From assembly GCA_963809895.1 (NCBI GenBank), contig CAWELD010000003.1, positions 2,944,001 through 3,008,000 of the forward strand: 64,000 bases of DNA. Direction: 5' to 3'. Positions 21,042 to 32,462 of this stretch are shown here, piece by piece. This DNA is from an uncultured Gemmatimonadales bacterium. GTDB taxonomy: Bacteria > Gemmatimonadota > Gemmatimonadetes > Longimicrobiales > Gaopeijiaceae. The first letter of the stretch is position 1. Each line of letters opens with the position of its first letter. Position numbers and translations under genes: made by a program. Under the pieces are notes generated by a model. It ran no database searches. It was not told where the DNA came from and worked only from the letters and a program-made list of their open reading frames with translations.

Positions 21042-21070
21042 TGAGACGCCTCTGAGACGCGTGTGAGACG
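21042..21070 (+). promoter_or_regulatory. Three identical TGAGACG heptamers at 11-bp period (direct-repeat regulator site)
   Basis: Copies at 21042, 21053 and 21064, ending 64 nt before ATG 21135. Confidence 0.65.
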
Positions 21071-21134
21071 GCCTCGCACCAGTTGCATTGGGGACGAGCG
21101 ACCCATCCGGTTCCTTCTCGGAGCGAGGCGAGGC

Positions 21135-22517
21135 ATGCCCAATCACAAAGGCCTGGTGGAGATCCAGGACAGTGCGAACAACCCGACCATCGTTCTCGAC
21201 GGGGAGACCGGCGATGTGGTCGCTGGCGGCTCCGGCCAGGACGGGCTCCTGGTGGCTAGCGACGGCGCGGGCAACGAGCGAGTTCGAGTGGACGGGTCGA
21301 CGGGAACGGTGGAGGTGCTCTCGCCGAGCGGCGATCCGGTGGTCCTCGTGGACGGCACCGAAGGAGACGTGGTCATCTACCGCATGGTCGGGGGCGCCAA
21401 CCGCGAGGCTCTCCGCTTCGATGCCAGCTCCGCCGCCCTCACCCTGGGGGCACAGGACTGCGAAGGCGACCTGCTGATACGGGATCAGGCCGGACGAACG
21501 GTCCTCCGTTTCGATGCCTCTTCGTCGGCCCTGTACGTGGGCGCGGAGGGGAACGAAGGCGACATCGTGGTCCGGAACGGCAACGGAGACTATGCCTTCC
21601 AGGTGGACGGCAACACCGGCAACCTGTGGGTTCGCCGCCGGATCGGCCGAACGCTCCGCAACGTGCTCCACTTCGATGCCGTCCACGCCGCGCTCTACAT
21701 CGGGTGTCAGGGCAACGAAGGCGACCTCATCATCCAGGACGGAGGAGGCCGGGACGTCTTCCGTTTCGATTCCAACCGGGCGGCCCTCTACCTGGGCCAG
21801 ACCGGCAACGAGGGCGATCTCATCGTGCGCGACGGTGGAGGCAGACAGGTCTTCCACTTCGACTCCAGCCATGCCGCTCTCTATCTCGGGGCCGACGGGA
21901 ACGAGGGGGACCTGATCATCCGGGACGGTGATGGACGGGACGTCTTCCGATTCGACGCCAACTACGCGCTTCTCGACGTCGGCGCGGCCGGGAACGAGGG
22001 CGACATCCGGGTCCGGGACAACGACGGAGACGTGCGTATCCACCTGGACGGCAACTCCGGAGACATCAAGCTCCTGGGCGCCGACTGTGCCGAGGACTTC
22101 GAGGTCGACACGCCCGACGCGGCCGAAGACGGAACGGTCCTGGTCATCAACGACGACGGGCGCCTGGAGCCCAGCGCCCACGCCTACGATCGGCGGGTGG
22201 CAGGCGTGATCTCGGGAGCCGGGGGCTACCGCCCCGGACTGATCCTCGACCGGAAACCCGGCCAGGGCGCGAACGGACGGTCCGACACCGCACCTCCGGG
22301 ACGACGTCCCATCGCCCTCACCGGCAAGGTCTTCTGCTGGGTGGACGCCGCTTACGGACCCATCGGTGTGGGCGACCTTCTCACGACTTCGGACACCCCC
22401 GGCCACGCCATGCGCGCCGCCGATCCCCTGAGGGCCTTCGGTGCCGTCATCGGGAAGGCGCTCGGCCGCCTGGAGCGTGGGCGTGGCCTGGTGCCGGTCC
22501 TGGTCGCTCTCCAATAG
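21135..22517 (+). CDS. Beta-repeat fibre-like protein (460 aa) with a putative C-terminal autocleaving intramolecular-chaperone domain
   Basis: Six 31-aa repeats FDxxxAALYLGxxGNEGDLIIRDGxGRxVFx, then GA-DCAEDF..VAGVIS..ALTGKV..GDLLTTS..G.AM; GAGG SD; no signal peptide. Confidence 0.7.
   Translation: MPNHKGLVEIQDSANNPTIVLDGETGDVVAGGSGQDGLLVASDGAGNERVRVDGSTGTVEVLSPSGDPVVLVDGTEGDVVIYRMVGGANREALRFDASSAALTLGAQDCEGDLLIRDQAGRTVLRFDASSSALYVGAEGNEGDIVVRNGNGDYAFQVDGNTGNLWVRRRIGRTLRNVLHFDAVHAALYIGCQGNEGDLIIQDGGGRDVFRFDSNRAALYLGQTGNEGDLIVRDGGGRQVFHFDSSHAALYLGADGNEGDLIIRDGDGRDVFRFDANYALLDVGAAGNEGDIRVRDNDGDVRIHLDGNSGDIKLLGADCAEDFEVDTPDAAEDGTVLVINDDGRLEPSAHAYDRRVAGVISGAGGYRPGLILDRKPGQGANGRSDTAPPGRRPIALTGKVFCWVDAAYGPIGVGDLLTTSDTPGHAMRAADPLRAFGAVIGKALGRLERGRGLVPVLVALQ
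21417..22043 (+). repeat. Intragenic 93-bp (31-aa) repeats: two copies, a 23-aa spacer, then four copies
   Basis: Recurrent TTCGA(T/C)...GGCAACGA(A/G)GGCGA(C/T)CT-like units. Confidence 0.85.
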
Positions 22518-22528
22518 GAGCCGGAGAC

Positions 22529-23248
22529 ATGGCATCGATTCGTAGCCTGGCCGCCTGCATGGGGCTCTCCGGAGACCTCTCCGTTCTCGGAGACCTCTTC
22601 GGGTTCTTCCGGCGACAGGTGCCCCCCGATCCCACCGGGGCTGCCACCCAGGTCTCGCTCAAGACCCAACTCCAACGCCTGGGCGGACGCCATCACCACC
22701 TCAACGTCATCGCCGTCGGCGTCGATCAGTTCACGGACAGCGACGACATCCAGGTGGACTACGCCATCTACCGTCTGAGGACGATCTGGAGCCAGGTGTC
22801 GTTGGGTGTGGGTCGAATCCAGCATTGGGGTGTGGATACCGCCGATGCGGGGGGGCTGGACACACCCACGTCCAAGGGCGATCTGGAAGACATCACCGAC
22901 AGCTGGACCGTCGCCAACGACGGCATCGACATGTTCATCCCCCACAACATGAACATCCCCAGCGACGGAGGAATCATCCTGGGCCGGTCGGCCATCGACG
23001 GCCCCTGCGAGGACAAGGACGACAAGGGGATGAACGGGTCCACCGCCGGGCTGTGGGGTAGTGAGCAGACGGCGCGCACCTTCGCCCACGAGCTGGGCCA
23101 CTACCTGGGCCTCGAACACAAGAATGGGAGCCCGAGCAATCTGATGTGCCAGAGTGGCAAGGCCAGCAGTACGCGCAATTCGGTGAACCTCACCAGTGGC
23201 CAGGGAAGTGACATGCGCGACCACTGCCTGGTCCGAGGGGGATGCTGA
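22529..23248 (+). CDS. Metzincin zinc metalloprotease (pappalysin/M43-like)
   Basis: HELGHYLGLEH at 23087-23119, Met-turn NLM, C-terminal LTSGQGSDM; no signal peptide. Confidence 0.82.
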   Translation: MASIRSLAACMGLSGDLSVLGDLFGFFRRQVPPDPTGAATQVSLKTQLQRLGGRHHHLNVIAVGVDQFTDSDDIQVDYAIYRLRTIWSQVSLGVGRIQHWGVDTADAGGLDTPTSKGDLEDITDSWTVANDGIDMFIPHNMNIPSDGGIILGRSAIDGPCEDKDDKGMNGSTAGLWGSEQTARTFAHELGHYLGLEHKNGSPSNLMCQSGKASSTRNSVNLTSGQGSDMRDHCLVRGGC

Positions 23249-24270
23249 TGATGACACGGAAGCCGACCCACGGTGGCGGTGACTTTCTGCACGCGGAAGC
23301 CTACGAGCTCGAGGAGCTCCGTTCCGCCGTGTTCCAGGGCTCGGATCGCCTGCCCCGTCCGCTGGCCCTGGGGCTGCTCGCCCGCAAGGCCTATCCCGAA
23401 AAGACCGACGACTTCGCGCGACTGCTCATGAACGACGATGAGCCTCCGGGCCTCCGTAAGGTGGCCGCCCACGAGTTGGCCCGCATGGACGCGCCCGAGG
23501 CCACGACCCTGCTTCGGGAAGCGCTCTCGGTCCGCGACCCGCTGGTGAAGCAGGACGTGATCGCGGCGCTGGCCCGGGTGGGCGGCGACGAGGAGTTGAA
23601 GGCGGTGCGTGGCTTCCGCGACCGCAAGACGGGAGACGTCGCTCGATCCGCGCAGTGGACGTCGCAACTGTTGACCTACCTGACCGGCGCCCGGGGGAAC
23701 GGTGTGCCGATGCCGCCGCGACGCACCTGGCGGCCGGCCGATGAACGGCGAGCCCAGCCCGTCGAGGTCGCGAAGGCGCGCGGCAAGCGCCTCGAGGCCG
23801 CTCTGGACGGGGCGCGTCAGGCGATCCCGGCGGCCGGGCTGAGCCCGGAGGGGGGCCTGGCCCTGACGTGCGGGGACCGAGAGATGGTGCTCCTGCTGCG
23901 AGAGGGAATCTCGCAGGGTGGTGCCCAGGCCTTGCGGGACTCCCGAACCGTGGCGGCGGTGATCACCGAGCGCCACACCCTCGAAGACGAGAGCTGGGAG
24001 ATCCGCTTCCTCGTCCTCACCGAACCCTCGGACGACGAGACCGCGCTACGGGTCCTGGTGTGCACGCCCCGCGGCGTCGTGCGCTTCGTGGGAACGCTCG
24101 CCCTGAAGGGCGACACCCCAGGAGCCTTCGAGCTCGTGGGCGTCGACGGGCCCGGCGCCATCCCCCTCCTGGCGGACGGGGTGTTGGACGAGGGCGTCGT
24201 CCGCTTCGACCGGCTCCTGGCGGAGCAGCGCACCCGGCCCGGAAGTGGACGCGGGGTGCGGAAGCGCTGA
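23242..24270 (+). CDS. HEAT/PBS-repeat protein with an unrecognised beta-rich C-terminal domain
   Basis: LRKVAAHELARM..LLREALSVRDPLVKQDVIAALARVGG; ATGs at 23242/23248 overlap the protease stop. Confidence 0.7.
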   Translation: MLMMTRKPTHGGGDFLHAEAYELEELRSAVFQGSDRLPRPLALGLLARKAYPEKTDDFARLLMNDDEPPGLRKVAAHELARMDAPEATTLLREALSVRDPLVKQDVIAALARVGGDEELKAVRGFRDRKTGDVARSAQWTSQLLTYLTGARGNGVPMPPRRTWRPADERRAQPVEVAKARGKRLEAALDGARQAIPAAGLSPEGGLALTCGDREMVLLLREGISQGGAQALRDSRTVAAVITERHTLEDESWEIRFLVLTEPSDDETALRVLVCTPRGVVRFVGTLALKGDTPGAFELVGVDGPGAIPLLADGVLDEGVVRFDRLLAEQRTRPGSGRGVRKR

Positions 24271-24364
24271 ACCATTCCGACGCCCGGGTGACTCGCGGCG
24301 CATCCTTCCCTTACATTGGCGCTCGCGGAGCCGCACGGCAGCATCCCTCTCACCCGGGCGTCCC

Positions 24365-26019
24365 GTGGCATCCAACTCCGTCCATCTGGATCGGGGCCGA
24401 CGCGCCTTCGAACAGCGATCGTGGGAGCTCGCCCACGACGCCCTGCGGGCAGCGCACGACGCCGGTCCGCTGGCGCCCGCCGACCTCTGGCGCCTCGCGC
24501 TCACCGCGTACCTGCTCGGTCTCGCCGAGGAGTTCGTCGACACCGCGCAGGAGGCCTACAAGGCATGCCTGCTGGAGGAGGACGGCCCCGCGGCCGCCCG
24601 CTGCGCCTTCTGGCTCGGATTCCACCTCGCCAATCGCGGCGACATCGCCCAGGCCAGCGGCTGGTTCGGCCGAGCGGGACGTCTGCTGGACGAGTTCGGG
24701 GGCGAACATCCGGAGCGCGGCTACCTTCTCATTCCCGCCGGATATCGGCGCTTCGTGGAGGGCGCCTACGAGGACTCGGCGACCATCGCGGCGCAGGCGC
24801 TGCGACATCGGACGACGTTTCGGCGAAGCGGATCTGGTCGCGCTGGCTCTGCACCTCCAGGGTCGTGCACGCCTGCGGCAGGCCCGGATCGACGAGGGCC
24901 TGGCGCTGCTGGACGAGGCCATGGTGGACGTGTCCACCGGTGAGCTCTCGCCACAGACCACCGGCCTCGTCTACTGCAGCGTGATCGGCGCATGCCGGGA
25001 AGTCCAGGCGCTGGGACGCGCTCACGAGTGGACCGCGGCCCTCAGCGAATGGTGCGAAGCTCAGCCGGACATGGTCGCGTACACGGGCGAGTGCCGGGTC
25101 TACCGGGCCGAGATCCTCCGCCTGCGCGGCGAGTGGCGCGATGCCATGAACGAGGCCAGGCGCGCCTCGGACCGGTTCGCCAAGGGCTCGGAGCCCGCAT
25201 CCGCGGGATCTGCCCTCTACCAGCAGGGGGAGATCCATCGCCTGCGCGGCGCGTTCGCCGCCGCGGAGGAAGCCTACAAGGCGGCCAGCCTCGAAGGTCG
25301 GGAGCCTCAGCCGGGGCTGGCGCTCCTGCGGCTGGCCCAGGGCGACGACGAGTCGGCCCTGGCCGCCATCCGGCGTGCGTTGGCAGGAACGCGCGAGCCG
25401 CGGCGGCGTGTGGCGCTCCTGCCGGCCGCCATCGAGATCCTGCTCGACGCCGGCGAGATCGCGGAGGCCCGAACCGTTCAGGACGAGCTCCGTCGGGATC
25501 GCCGACGCGTGCGCGCCGGGACTGGTGGGTGCCACGGTGCTGCAGATGGAGGGTGCCATCGCGCTGCGGGCCGGCGACGCCGACGGTGCCTTGGCACCTC
25601 TGCGCCGCGCCTGGAAGGCGTGGCGCTCCATCAACGCGCCCTACGAGGCAGCGCGCACCCGGGTGCTGCTGGGTCGGGCTTGCCTGGAGATGGGCGATCA
25701 GGACACGGCCGCAATGGAGATGGAGGCGGCCCGAGCGACCTTCGAGCGACTGGGCGCCACGCCCGATCTCGCCCGACTCGACGCGCTCACCCGGCAGCGA
25801 CGACCTGCCCCCCGTCACGGCCTCACATCGCGGGAGCTCGAGGTCCTCTCCCTCGTGGCGACGGGGCGGACCAACCGCGCCATCGGCCAGGAGCTGAGCA
25901 TCAGCGAGAAGACCGTCGCGCGCCACCTCGCCAACATCTTCACGAAGTTGGACGTTTCCTCGCGCACCGCCGCCACGGCCTACGCGTACGAGCACGGCCT
26001 CCTGGAGCCGTCTACATAG
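24365..26019 (+). CDS. TPR-like / LuxR C-terminal HTH regulator; two frameshifts (near 24805 and 25495)
   Basis: [73 protein letters not shown] across three frames. Confidence 0.85.
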
Positions 26020-30210: not shown

Positions 30211-30239
30211 AGGATAGAGTGTCGATTGACCAGTGTCAA
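30211..30239 (-). promoter_or_regulatory. Sigma70-type promoter TTGACA-17-TATCCT, 8 nt before the padR ATG (near-leaderless), with palindrome TTGACACTGGTCAA over the -35
   Basis: -35 at 30239-30234, -10 at 30216-30211; no SD. Confidence 0.7.
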
Positions 30240-30331
30240 GTGACTGTGGTAGATCGACGATGGCGCGCTTGCGTCGGCCTCGGTGGCCCGGTTCTTTGGG
30301 AGCCCTGTGGATACCCCGTCCGGAGGGCAGG

Positions 30332-32462
30332 ATGAAGATCGCCGTTCGCCGTCTCGTCGCCGCCGCCGTCTGCCTCAGCGCCTGCGCTCCCGCCTATCCC
30401 CCACCGCCCGAGTCCCGAGTGGCGACGGTGGTGGATACGCTGCACGGCGTGGCGTTCGCCGACGATTATCGGTGGCTCGAGGACCAGGACGCTCCGGAAA
30501 CCCGCGCCTGGATCGCGGCCCAGAACACCTACGCGGAGCAGATCGTGGGCGAGCCGGCGCTGCGGGAGCGCCTCCGTGCCCGCCTGCGCGAGCTGGTGGA
30601 TCGCGACGACGTGGGCACCGCCCGCCGCGCCGGCGACTACGAGTACTTCTCCATGGTCCGCGAAGGTGAGGAGATGGGCCGGGTCTACCGCCGACCGACC
30701 CAGGACGGCGCCGCGCTCGACGAACCCTCCGTGGACGGGGACTACGAGGTGGTACTGGATCCCGCGGACTTCGACCCGGACTACCGGGTCACGGTTTCCA
30801 TGGGCGATTTCTCTCCGGACGGCCGCTACATGATGTACACCGTGCGCCAGGGCGGCGCCGACGAGATCGCGGTGCACGTGCGTGACCTGCTCACCGGCCA
30901 GGACCTGCCCGACAGCCTCCCCGACGCGCTGTACGGGGGATTGGAATGGGACGACGACGGCCAGGGCTACACCTACGTCCACCGGGACCGATACCAGGGT
31001 CCGCGGATCCGTCACCATGCGCTGGGCGCCGGCCCGGCCGACGACGAGTTGGTCTGGGGCGAGGGCTATCCCCCGACCACCTTCGTCGGCATGAACGACA
31101 CGCCGGATGGCCGCTGGCGCCTCTACAACGTCAACTTCGGCTGGGCGCGGGCCGACTGGTTCATCCAGGACGCGCGCATCGGGCGGCTCCATCCGACCGC
31201 TGGTCGCGGGAATCCCGGCGCACTTTCAGGTCCGCTACCGCCAGGGGCGCCTGTACGTCCTCACCGATTGGAACGCCTCCAACTACCGCCTCATGGTGGC
31301 GGACCCCGAACAGTCCGACCCGGCGTCGTGGACCGAGCTGATTCCCGAGGCCGACGACCTGCTCGAAGGCTACACCTTCATCGGTGACCGCATCTACGCC
31401 ACCTACCTCCACGACGTGGCGGACCGCATCCGCGTCTTCGAGACCGACGGGACGCCCGCAGGTGACATCGAGGTACCGGACAACTCGAGCGTGACCATCC
31501 GTGGAGCCGACGACGGACAGGCCGAGCTCACCGTCAGCGGATATCTCCGCCCTTCACGCACCTGGACCCTCGATCTCGCCGACGGCACGCGCACGCTCAC
31601 CGACTCTTCCGAGGTCCCCTTCGACACCGCGGGAGTCATGGTCACGAAAACCTTCTTCACCTCGGCCGACGGCACGCGGGCCCCCATGTACGTCATGCAC
31701 CGCCGGGGTCTGGTGCTCGACGGCACCAATCCCACCATCCTGAACGGCTATGGCGGGTTCAACGTCGCCATCAAGCCCGGCTTCTCCGCCAACGCCGCGG
31801 CCTGGGTGGAGATGGGTGGGGTCTACGCCGTCGCGACGCTCCGGGGCGGCAACGAATACGGCGAGGAATGGCACCGGGCGGGCATGCTGGAGAACAAGCC
31901 CAACGTCTTCGCCGACTTCATCGCCGCCGCCGAGCACCTGATCGCCGAGGGCTACACCGACCCGGACCACCTGGGGATCTCCGGAGCCAGCAACGGAGGC
32001 CTGTTGGTGGGCGCCGCCCTGACCCTGCGGCCCGACCTCTTCCGGGCCGTGCTGTGCGGGTTTCCCGATCTGGACATGATCCGCTTCTGGGATTTCCAGG
32101 ACCGCAACAACATGCCCGCCCTCTTGGAGTACGGAGACGCCCGCAACGCGGACCAGTTCGAAGCCATCCGCACCTACTCGCCCTATCAGGCGGTGCGGGA
32201 CGGCGTGGACTACCCGGCGGTCATGCTCTCCACCGGCGATCTGGACACCCGGGTGCCACCGCTGCAGGCCCGGCGCATGACCGCGCGCCTGCAGGCCGCC
32301 ACGAGCTCCGGGCTACCGGTGATCCTCTTCTACGACGAGATGGGAGGCCACGCCGCCGGCCGCGGTCAGCCCACGAGCATGCGCGTGGAGAGCATGGCCC
32401 GCGGGCTGACCTTCATGGCCGAGCAGCTGGGACTGACGGCTACAGACCCAGCTTCTCCCTGA
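30332..32462 (+). CDS. Prolyl oligopeptidase (S9A), lipoprotein; one frameshift near 31180
   Basis: LSAC lipobox, DDYRWLED, GYGGFN, GASNGGLL, DTRV, GH. Confidence 0.92.

Follow-up and report, generated by a model that had tools for sequence, protein, structure and literature searches.

Phage-like fibre, tagged zinc protease and HEAT protein: a conserved three-gene module in a Gemmatimonadales genome

Introduction

What joins a fibre-like repeat protein, a zinc protease and a HEAT-repeat protein when their genes are packed into one operon on a bacterial chromosome? The question is raised by a stretch of 64,000 nucleotides (here "the window"; positions 2,944,001 to 3,008,000 of contig CAWELD010000003.1) from an uncultured Gemmatimonadales bacterium (GCA_963809895.1; 5.33 Mb, 95% complete; source genome G000). 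The initial annotation, made from the sequence alone, took the three genes for a dedicated module, such as a domesticated spike with a processing or toxic protease and its inhibitor or adaptor, acting as cargo of a remote injection system, a lysis-released weapon or a defence or sensing device. We compared the fibre (P0001), the protease (P0002) and their partner with homologous loci, which carry L numbers here. The module is real, conserved and apparently undescribed: every fold in it is known, but its arrangement of carrier and tag is not. In the reading that we propose, and hold to be evenly balanced, the products of the operon are a free-standing fibre, a zinc protease that docks by its tag on the freed fibre tip and acts outside the cell, and a HEAT partner of the protease.

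Results

Conservation and distribution of the three genes

A GTDB scan for the metzincin family of the protease gave 102 stretches, of which 80 were kept and 76 were true members; motif-only matches (L077-L096) were left out. Adjacency was counted where at least 600 nt were available downstream (68 loci) or at least 700 nt upstream (72 loci), and frameshifted HEAT or protease genes (L016, L020, L055 and L067) were scored as present and omitted from one alignment. A HEAT gene adjoins the metzincin gene in all 68 informative loci. A fibre gene adjoins it in 68 of 72: 56 loci pair a fibre ending in a G2-type chaperone domain with a tagged protease, 12 pair an unrelated coiled-coil-ended fibre with a tagged protease, and the remaining four have neither fibre nor tag. 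The trio is intact in 61 of the 65 loci informative for all of it, across phyla, so the homologues do co-occur and the proposal of a dedicated conserved module is borne out. By the titles of their records, hosts belong to Actinomycetota, Acidobacteriota, Pseudomonadota, Bacteroidota, Verrucomicrobiota, Cyanobacteria, Chloroflexota, Gemmatimonadota and Nitrospira. The spread is patchy, with 3 of 301 genomes in the source phylum, Gemmatimonadota, and no further conserved neighbour of the trio was found across the 76 loci.

A shared terminal tag and exchangeable cargos

In searches that started from fibre loci, the next gene varied widely and usually began or ended with a common segment, the tag. 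It spans about 45 terminal residues with three copies of a hydrophobic-S-[LIV]-[RK] motif, and a short stretch behind each copy appears helix-like in its residue pattern. At least two S/T-hydrophobic-R/K motifs occur in the terminal 65 residues of 40 of the 83 automatically called genes behind G2-ended fibres, compared with 76 of 1986 open reading frames (ORFs) of the genome. A profile was built from 40 tags, excluding the metzincin family of P0002 and including other metzincin subfamilies; with it, residues 1-58 of P0002 ranked first of the 1986 ORFs, at 12.1 bits against 6.4 for the next. In five-fold cross-validation with near kin grouped, 36 of the 40 held-out tags ranked within the best 1% when set against 3970 background termini. 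Moreover, a tag match lies within 1.5 kb of the fibre in 55 of 69 metagenome loci, a count that is partly circular, and in the source genome there is a single fibre gene and a single tagged gene. In the four protease loci that lack a fibre, the protein starts directly at the catalytic domain, with no tag; this links the tag with the fibre rather than with catalysis or the HEAT protein, although the four may stem from one event.

Tagged cargos match the Pfam families Metallophos (calcineurin-like), Phosphoesterase, Exo_endo_phos, Peptidase_M23, C25 and M6/reprolysin-like and, weakly, Nakanori-like, a pore-former fold. The tag switches between N-terminal and C-terminal placement (L098, L099, L204), and some operons hold two tagged genes (L002, L003, L008, L022, L146, L194, L199). 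Thus the initial annotation was right to see a dedicated module, and it missed that tagged cargos of many kinds can take the place of the protease, which is just one of them. Residues 1-52 of the protease could have been a cysteine-switch propeptide; this was set aside as the main explanation because the same segment is found on non-proteases.

Against 1.84 billion representative sequences, the tag profile gave 65 matches, almost all of them at the N-terminus; most are metzincins or fragments, the zinc motif being present in 25, one (P0308) is a clear false match, and the search did not widen the list of cargos. Against PHROG it gave nothing recurring. Two groups were seen besides. A tagged family of 400-430 residues with no Pfam match recurs in L121, L127, L160, L175, L189, L203 and L206, and in L134, L145, L146, L163 and L176 the fibre is followed by an uncharacterised protein of 164 residues and then by a tagged M6-like metzincin. 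Their acidic proteins and their neighbours give L145 and L146 a haloarchaeal look.

The fibre and its chaperone domain

Of 7997 scored candidates, 3473 are homologues of the fibre (E up to 0.001). Its AlphaFold model is all-beta (mean predicted local distance difference test score, pLDDT, 88.5) with 31-residue GNEGD repeats, which set in no more than about 35 residues from the start. Residues 317-458 matched best the fragment 692-854 of phage phi29 gp12 (3gqh_A; Z 14.4, root-mean-square deviation (rmsd) 2.7, 117 aligned residues, 21% identity), with beta-tulip capsid decoration proteins next (Z 8-11) and rows of unrelated fold after them at Z about 7. D317 aligns with gp12 residue 692, the first residue of the crystallised, released fragment, and D317 and E320 of the D-C-A-E motif (317-320) are invariant in both alignments (88 and 45 sequences). 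In gp12 itself, the Glu three residues on in the D-x-A-E is one that we take to be catalytic. The corresponding Pfam family, PF11962 (Peptidase_G2), matched 17 of the 88 homologues at E up to 0.01 and 6 of the 45, with no match in P0001 itself. The modelled domain suggests that the fibre cleaves itself between A316 and D317, and the protein is probably a trimeric beta-helix, its N-terminal part giving only middling matches to trimeric spikes (Z 6-7). The beta-repeat shaft with a D-x-A-E chaperone domain of the phage-spike type, as first described, is therefore supported by repeats, model and fold. Two sets of candidate relatives were rejected: Rhs, teneurin and Tc shells from Foldseek (template modelling score about 0.1, rmsd >30), which reflect generic beta sheet, and designed propellers among the sequence matches.

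Across loci the shaft is swapped among at least four unrelated types: GNEGD, GVxGxS and GNVGIGT repeats, all G2-ended, and a coiled-coil-ended type with RRALVHD...YPGG repeats, for which two scanned members gave no Pfam match. The tip strand GDIxL ahead of the cleavage motif is kept across the three repeat types of the G2-ended fibres. Among G2 fibres without a tagged neighbour, seven of the eight listed end without this strand. L114 and L117 (genomes G019 and G032; G019 has seven such distant matches) also hold G2-ended fibres, which are more distant, start in the manner of a signal peptide and have no tagged gene beside them.

The protease and its HEAT partner

Protease homologues numbered 336 among 846 candidates, the best 120 being full length at 58-89% identity. 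H187, E188, H191 and H197 are invariant in 44 sequences and M206 is nearly so; the HExxHxxGxxH motif, the Met-turn, and Pfam Reprolysin_5 and Reprolysin_3 matches above cut-off agree with the metzincin identity first given. No named metzincin subfamily was found, NCBIfam scores lying far under the cut-offs, and the best solved relative (E 6.5e-4) aligns at the zinc site only. C160 and C233 are invariant, and C10 and C239 are conserved at 90% or more; such cysteines would fit an oxidising site of action.

The third gene does encode a HEAT-repeat protein, as proposed, with a HEAT_2 match (E 3.7e-14) at residues 61-135. Its model is confident (pLDDT 92.7) and has two domains, the HEAT part and an added alpha/beta C-terminal domain; for the latter no structural or family match appeared in a whole-protein search, the list of which was filled by the HEAT part. 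The protein evolves fast, its GTDB relatives being 17-36% identical. Metzincins are the only cargos followed by HEAT genes, whether long or short, and a further metzincin group is paired with a different partner of 164 residues, which is the pattern of cargo-specific inhibitors. We accordingly lean slightly towards the HEAT protein being an inhibitor or chaperone of the protease.

Proposed mechanism

The following scheme would account for these data. The fibre trimer would fold with its C-terminal chaperone and then shed it by self-cleavage at A316/D317. The freed three-fold tip would bind the three tag repeats of a single cargo chain, one repeat per fibre chain. The particle of fibre and enzyme would leave the cell without a signal peptide, by lysis or alongside a contractile system, and would act outside it, in a hydrolytic or antagonistic way, towards neighbouring cells or matrix. 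Meanwhile the HEAT protein, as inhibitor or folding partner, would hold the protease inactive inside the producing cell. Release would most simply occur by lysis, because there are no signal peptides and no conserved export gene.

The steps differ in strength. That the tag binds the fibre is the most secure of them and quite probable, and action outside the cell is likely. If binding is granted, the cleaved C-terminal tip is the somewhat better candidate site than the N-terminal end, since the tip strand is kept in tagged systems and missing in most untagged G2 fibres. A precedent for tip capping may be seen in Salmonella phage S16, where gp38 caps the gp37 trimer by three helices in three symmetric pockets (PMC6851490, in the accessible text); it is an analogy between unrelated sequences. 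The processing role first suggested for the protease is unlikely, because the fibre has a self-cleaving domain of its own and non-protease enzymes occupy the same slot.

Several observations weigh against this scheme. A tag match within 1.5 kb is missing from 14 of the 69 metagenome fibre loci. The four loci without tag and fibre are all actinobacterial and may represent a single loss, and one of them (L074) has only 1 kb of upstream sequence. Most cargos have no Pfam match, so that "effector" is extrapolated from a minority. The tag profile matched none of the solved chains, and comparison of the tag with residues 1-48 of S16 gp38, its attachment domain, gave an hhalign probability of 0.04. 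The 12 coiled-coil fibres have neither chaperone nor cleaved tip, so tip capping there needs a second binding site. No conserved lysis or export gene lies near the trio across the 76 loci. Finally, the HEAT protein follows metzincins only, and its contact with the catalytic site is conjecture.

Taken more broadly, the data may describe a new class of polymorphic effectors in bacteria and archaea, although we put this at a little below an even chance: a minimal particle of two parts, a domesticated phage fibre and, borne on its tip, any enzyme with the 45-residue three-repeat tag, with dozens of cargos, cargo-specific inhibitors and no secretion machine of its own, possibly arming extracellular contractile injection systems (eCIS) in trans.

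Contractile injection systems and other explanations

Tallies of eCIS and of type VI secretion systems (T6SS) were made in 50 carrier genomes; 26 of the 76 loci, mostly on short contigs, lie outside them, and some eCIS counts include the unpublished genomes G043, G207, G368, G438, G498, G524 and G574. The eCIS-type tube family PF06841 is present in 35 of the 50 carriers. By phylum it occurs in 11/19, 7/8 and 10/13 carriers against 21/200, 20/150 and 13/200 genomes of the phylum samples, which makes it 5 to 12 times commoner in carriers, with kin not independent and genome size and habitat uncontrolled. In Gemmatimonadota it was found in 29 of 300 genomes and in both other carriers. In G000, no match to tube, sheath, Pvc16 or DUF4157 was found, and 15 of the 50 carriers have no tube family, including a genome titled complete (L056/G041) that also lacks TssC. 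T6SS occurs in 10 of the 50. Of the cultured carriers, Actinosynnema sp. CS-041913 and Roseobacter sp. EG26 have eCIS markers, and Altibacter lentus and Phycicoccus sp. HDW14 have none. No shared eCIS neighbour was found in the 76 loci, one operon of 50 (L109) lies within about 7 kb of an eCIS locus, and neither a tagged gene nor a close fibre was found in 20 stretches around eCIS tubes. The tag was therefore rejected as an eCIS loading signal, there being no tagged gene in those stretches or in the T6SS region.

Two observations stand beside these counts. G000 contains an apparently complete T6SS at C3:3382000-3412500 (L118, L119), about 415 kb from the fibre operon, with TssB/C, Hcp, ClpV, VgrG, a PAAR-like gene, and Ser/Thr kinase and FHA genes. 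In L220 (2186-5170), a tail fibre of an eCIS locus ends in a G2-like DFAE domain and a coiled coil, with no Pfam match; it is a possible ancestor of the module fibres.

How, then, should the module be read? One alternative is an orphan accessory cassette of a contractile injection system, whose fibre joins eCIS or T6SS particles in trans and brings the tagged enzyme to a target surface. The enrichment of PF06841 in every phylum compared, the DFAE-ended fibre of L220, the position of L109 and the complete T6SS of G000 speak for it. However, the eCIS markers are missing from G000 itself and the tube from 15 carriers, the 20 eCIS stretches are empty of tagged genes and close fibres, T6SS is infrequent among carriers, the enrichment is uncontrolled in the ways stated above, and known eCIS loading sequences, according to the accessible part of one source, are disordered and unconserved (10.64898/2026.05.27.728243). 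We regard this alternative as unlikely, though the most serious of those considered; shared lifestyle or shared lysis would explain the co-occurrence as plausibly as physical attachment. The suggestion of a cargo for a remote injection system thus stands in part, since carriers are enriched for eCIS but G000 shows that eCIS is not required; likewise, of the loci that it led one to expect elsewhere in the genome, the eCIS markers are absent and a full T6SS is present.

Alternatively, the tag could bind elsewhere on the fibre, at an open N-terminal beta-helix rung or on an uncleaved beta-tulip domain that serves as a docking base, as in capsid decoration proteins (a family reviewed in PMC7602432, accessible in part). 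Three of the four fibre types share a similar short starting strand, coiled-coil fibres without a chaperone still have tagged cargos, and the C-terminal domain does match decoration proteins; but the domain is most like the released gp12 fragment and stays in register with it from residue one of that fragment, with D317 and E320 invariant, and GVxGxS-type fibres start differently. Such a site is still less probable than the injection-system cassette. An intracellular defence or sensing device, in which the fibre senses phage parts and frees a toxic protease from its HEAT inhibitor, would suit the apparent lack of signal peptides, the patchy spread and the tight coupling of protease and partner. 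Yet the sole PADLOC 2.0 match was to a generic HEAT stretch within a model of 1972 positions, no defence neighbours recur in the 76 loci, and the conserved cysteines together with M23, C25 and pore-former-like cargos suit extracellular targets better, so that this part of the initial annotation found nothing in its support and is improbable. Least probable by far is that the trio is what is left of a prophage, or adjacent by chance. Its chaperone has a phage-type fold and four IMG/VR contigs (L097-L100) hold close fibres, but those fibres are themselves followed by tagged cargos, no full-length metzincin relative was found in IMG/VR, no fibre match in 50,697 GenBank phage records and no meaningful match in PHROG, and the intact trios across phyla refute the idea. 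A stand-alone fibre carrying a tagged enzyme on its tip remains the reading that we prefer.

The locus and its upstream array

Table 1. Features of the operon in the window and of the alternative fibre in compared loci
Feature	Position	Strand	Description
Heptamer array	21042, 21053, 21064 (21042..21070)	+	TGAGACG three times at an 11-bp period; ends 64 nt before the fibre start
Fibre gene	21135-22517	+	460 aa; a short strand at the N-terminus, GNEGD beta repeats of 31 aa, the tip strand GDIxLxGA and, at the C-terminus, a chaperone domain
G2-type intramolecular chaperone (beta-tulip) domain	22083..22514	+	Fibre residues 317-460; predicted self-cleavage A316/D317
Cargo gene	22529-23248	+	Cys-rich metzincin zinc protease, 239 aa; HELGHYLGLEH at 187-197, Met206
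N-terminal tag of the protease	22529..22684	+	Residues 1-52, with S-[LIV]-x repeated three times (S3, S18 and S43); common to unrelated cargo enzymes
Partner gene	23248-24270	+	HEAT protein, 340 aa; HEAT repeats about 20-146, alpha/beta domain about 170-325
Fourth (coiled-coil) fibre type	L005, L031, L055-L057, L060, L062-L066, L068		Replaces the G2 fibre upstream of the protease

The junctions, read directly in the sequence, agree with the tight linkage first reported: 11 nt including GGAG separate fibre and protease, and protease and HEAT genes overlap in TGATG (Table 1). For the fibre, the ATG at 21135 was preferred to an upstream GTG at 21063 because homologues begin at that point. Each of the three genes is single-copy in G000. 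GC content and GC at third codon positions (GC3) are near those of neighbouring genes, slightly lower in the fibre and protease genes (0.83 versus 0.87-0.89). By a proxy measure, N-terminal hydrophobicity, the trio appears to lack signal peptides, as had been stated: the fibre scores 0.81, the protease 1.72 and the HEAT protein 0.02, compared with 2.66 and 2.59 in two secreted-looking neighbours. The flanking genes encode a tricorn protease, a GH3 glycosidase, a frameshifted LuxR-TPR regulator and a flavin oxidoreductase. Reading of the ORF starts, together with Pfam scans of five neighbouring ORFs, revealed neither phage nor secretion genes in the window, which to that extent agrees with the initial annotation. 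One metatranscriptome contained three short contigs, 98-99% alike, on the fibre, the protease-HEAT junction and the HEAT gene; DNA was not excluded and a silent control was lacking, so they are not used as evidence.

The upstream array is real and perfect, the sole perfect threefold 7-mer of 11-bp period in the 5.3-Mb genome, and is likely an operator for a winged-helix activator. Of 145 fibres, 40 had an upstream region with a callable start; three of these 40 regions hold phased arrays, each of other heptamers (0 of 400 shuffles). The array noted initially therefore stands as a feature of this genome and was rejected as a conserved part of the module. A degenerate second array lies at C3:187820 (L229, C3:187820-189227), before a gene at C3:187902 that encodes a signal-less Ser/Gly-rich protein of 442 residues without a Pfam match and is convergent with a gene for an uncharacterised protein of 851 residues. 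This second copy suggests a small regulon, in which the 442-residue gene may be co-regulated with the fibre operon.

Further observations concern the assembly of the window. The TPR and GerE parts of the LuxR-TPR regulator (24245-26019) fall in different frames and ORFs, by a true frameshift or an assembly error. A prolyl-oligopeptidase-like gene (30233-32462) is apparently split across two frames, and a run of 586 G at 699-1284 is most likely an assembly artefact.

Comparison with known systems

No published description of the module was found in the open-access literature, supplements not included (those of eCIS catalogues could list its genes), in accord with the initial statement that no named system has this composition; the accessible text of PMC12923769, PMC8213781, PMC8894135, 10.64898/2026.05.27.728243, PMC10769870, PMC7602432, PMC6851490 and PMC3239186 does not describe it. 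If our reading is true, it would add a new carrier-and-tag logic for bacterial competition and foraging, in which a phage tail-tip assembly principle was re-invented in cells with different sequence. It would also account for thousands of "hypothetical" fibre-like proteins, judging by the homologue count above, and for their odd neighbours, and the tag would be a sequence marker for finding uncharacterised effector enzymes.

The closest likeness in fold is to the phi29 gp12 tailspike (PF11962, PDB 3GQH), which shares the fold and register of the C-terminal domain and the D-x-A-E motif; the module fibre, however, is short-shafted, has no virion-attachment or enzyme domain, and is chromosomal, not in a phage. 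In arrangement, the module resembles the T-even gp37-gp38 tip (S16, PDB 6F45; PMC6851490, as far as the accessible text goes), where a gene for a trimeric beta-helix precedes one for a single-chain cap with a variable C-terminal functional domain; in the module the cap is a proposal. Unlike that tip, the module is non-phage, its partner is an enzyme and not an adhesin, the tag may be N- or C-terminal and the chaperone is of G2 and not S74 type. The gp38 attachment domain has three Trp, whereas the tag has S-[LIV]-R motifs and no Trp, and the two are not homologous.

The MAT fibres of Bdellovibrio (PMC10769870, in the part accessible) are likewise bacterial, phage-like and trimeric, with or without a self-cleaving chaperone, and exchange modules. 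They differ in having signal peptides, a conserved N-terminal domain of 130 residues, S74 chaperones and about 1000 residues, and no tagged enzyme partner is described in that text. The module fibre, with low N-terminal hydrophobicity and a G2-type end, shows neither the signal peptide nor the S74 chaperone with SDxxxK that mark MATs. With eCIS tail fibres and DUF4157 cargos (PMC12923769, PMC8213781, PMC8894135, each accessible in part) the module shares phage-derived chaperone-ended fibres, signal-less cargos including metalloproteases, the same habitats and often the same genomes; by contrast, its operon is unlinked to eCIS genes and occurs without them, and its tag is ordered and conserved, where eCIS has a disordered loading sequence. 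Finally, as in polymorphic toxin-immunity systems, a constant trafficking module is combined with a variable enzyme cargo and a cargo-specific downstream partner, sometimes with several cargos in a row, but here the trafficking part is a new short tag together with a separate fibre gene.

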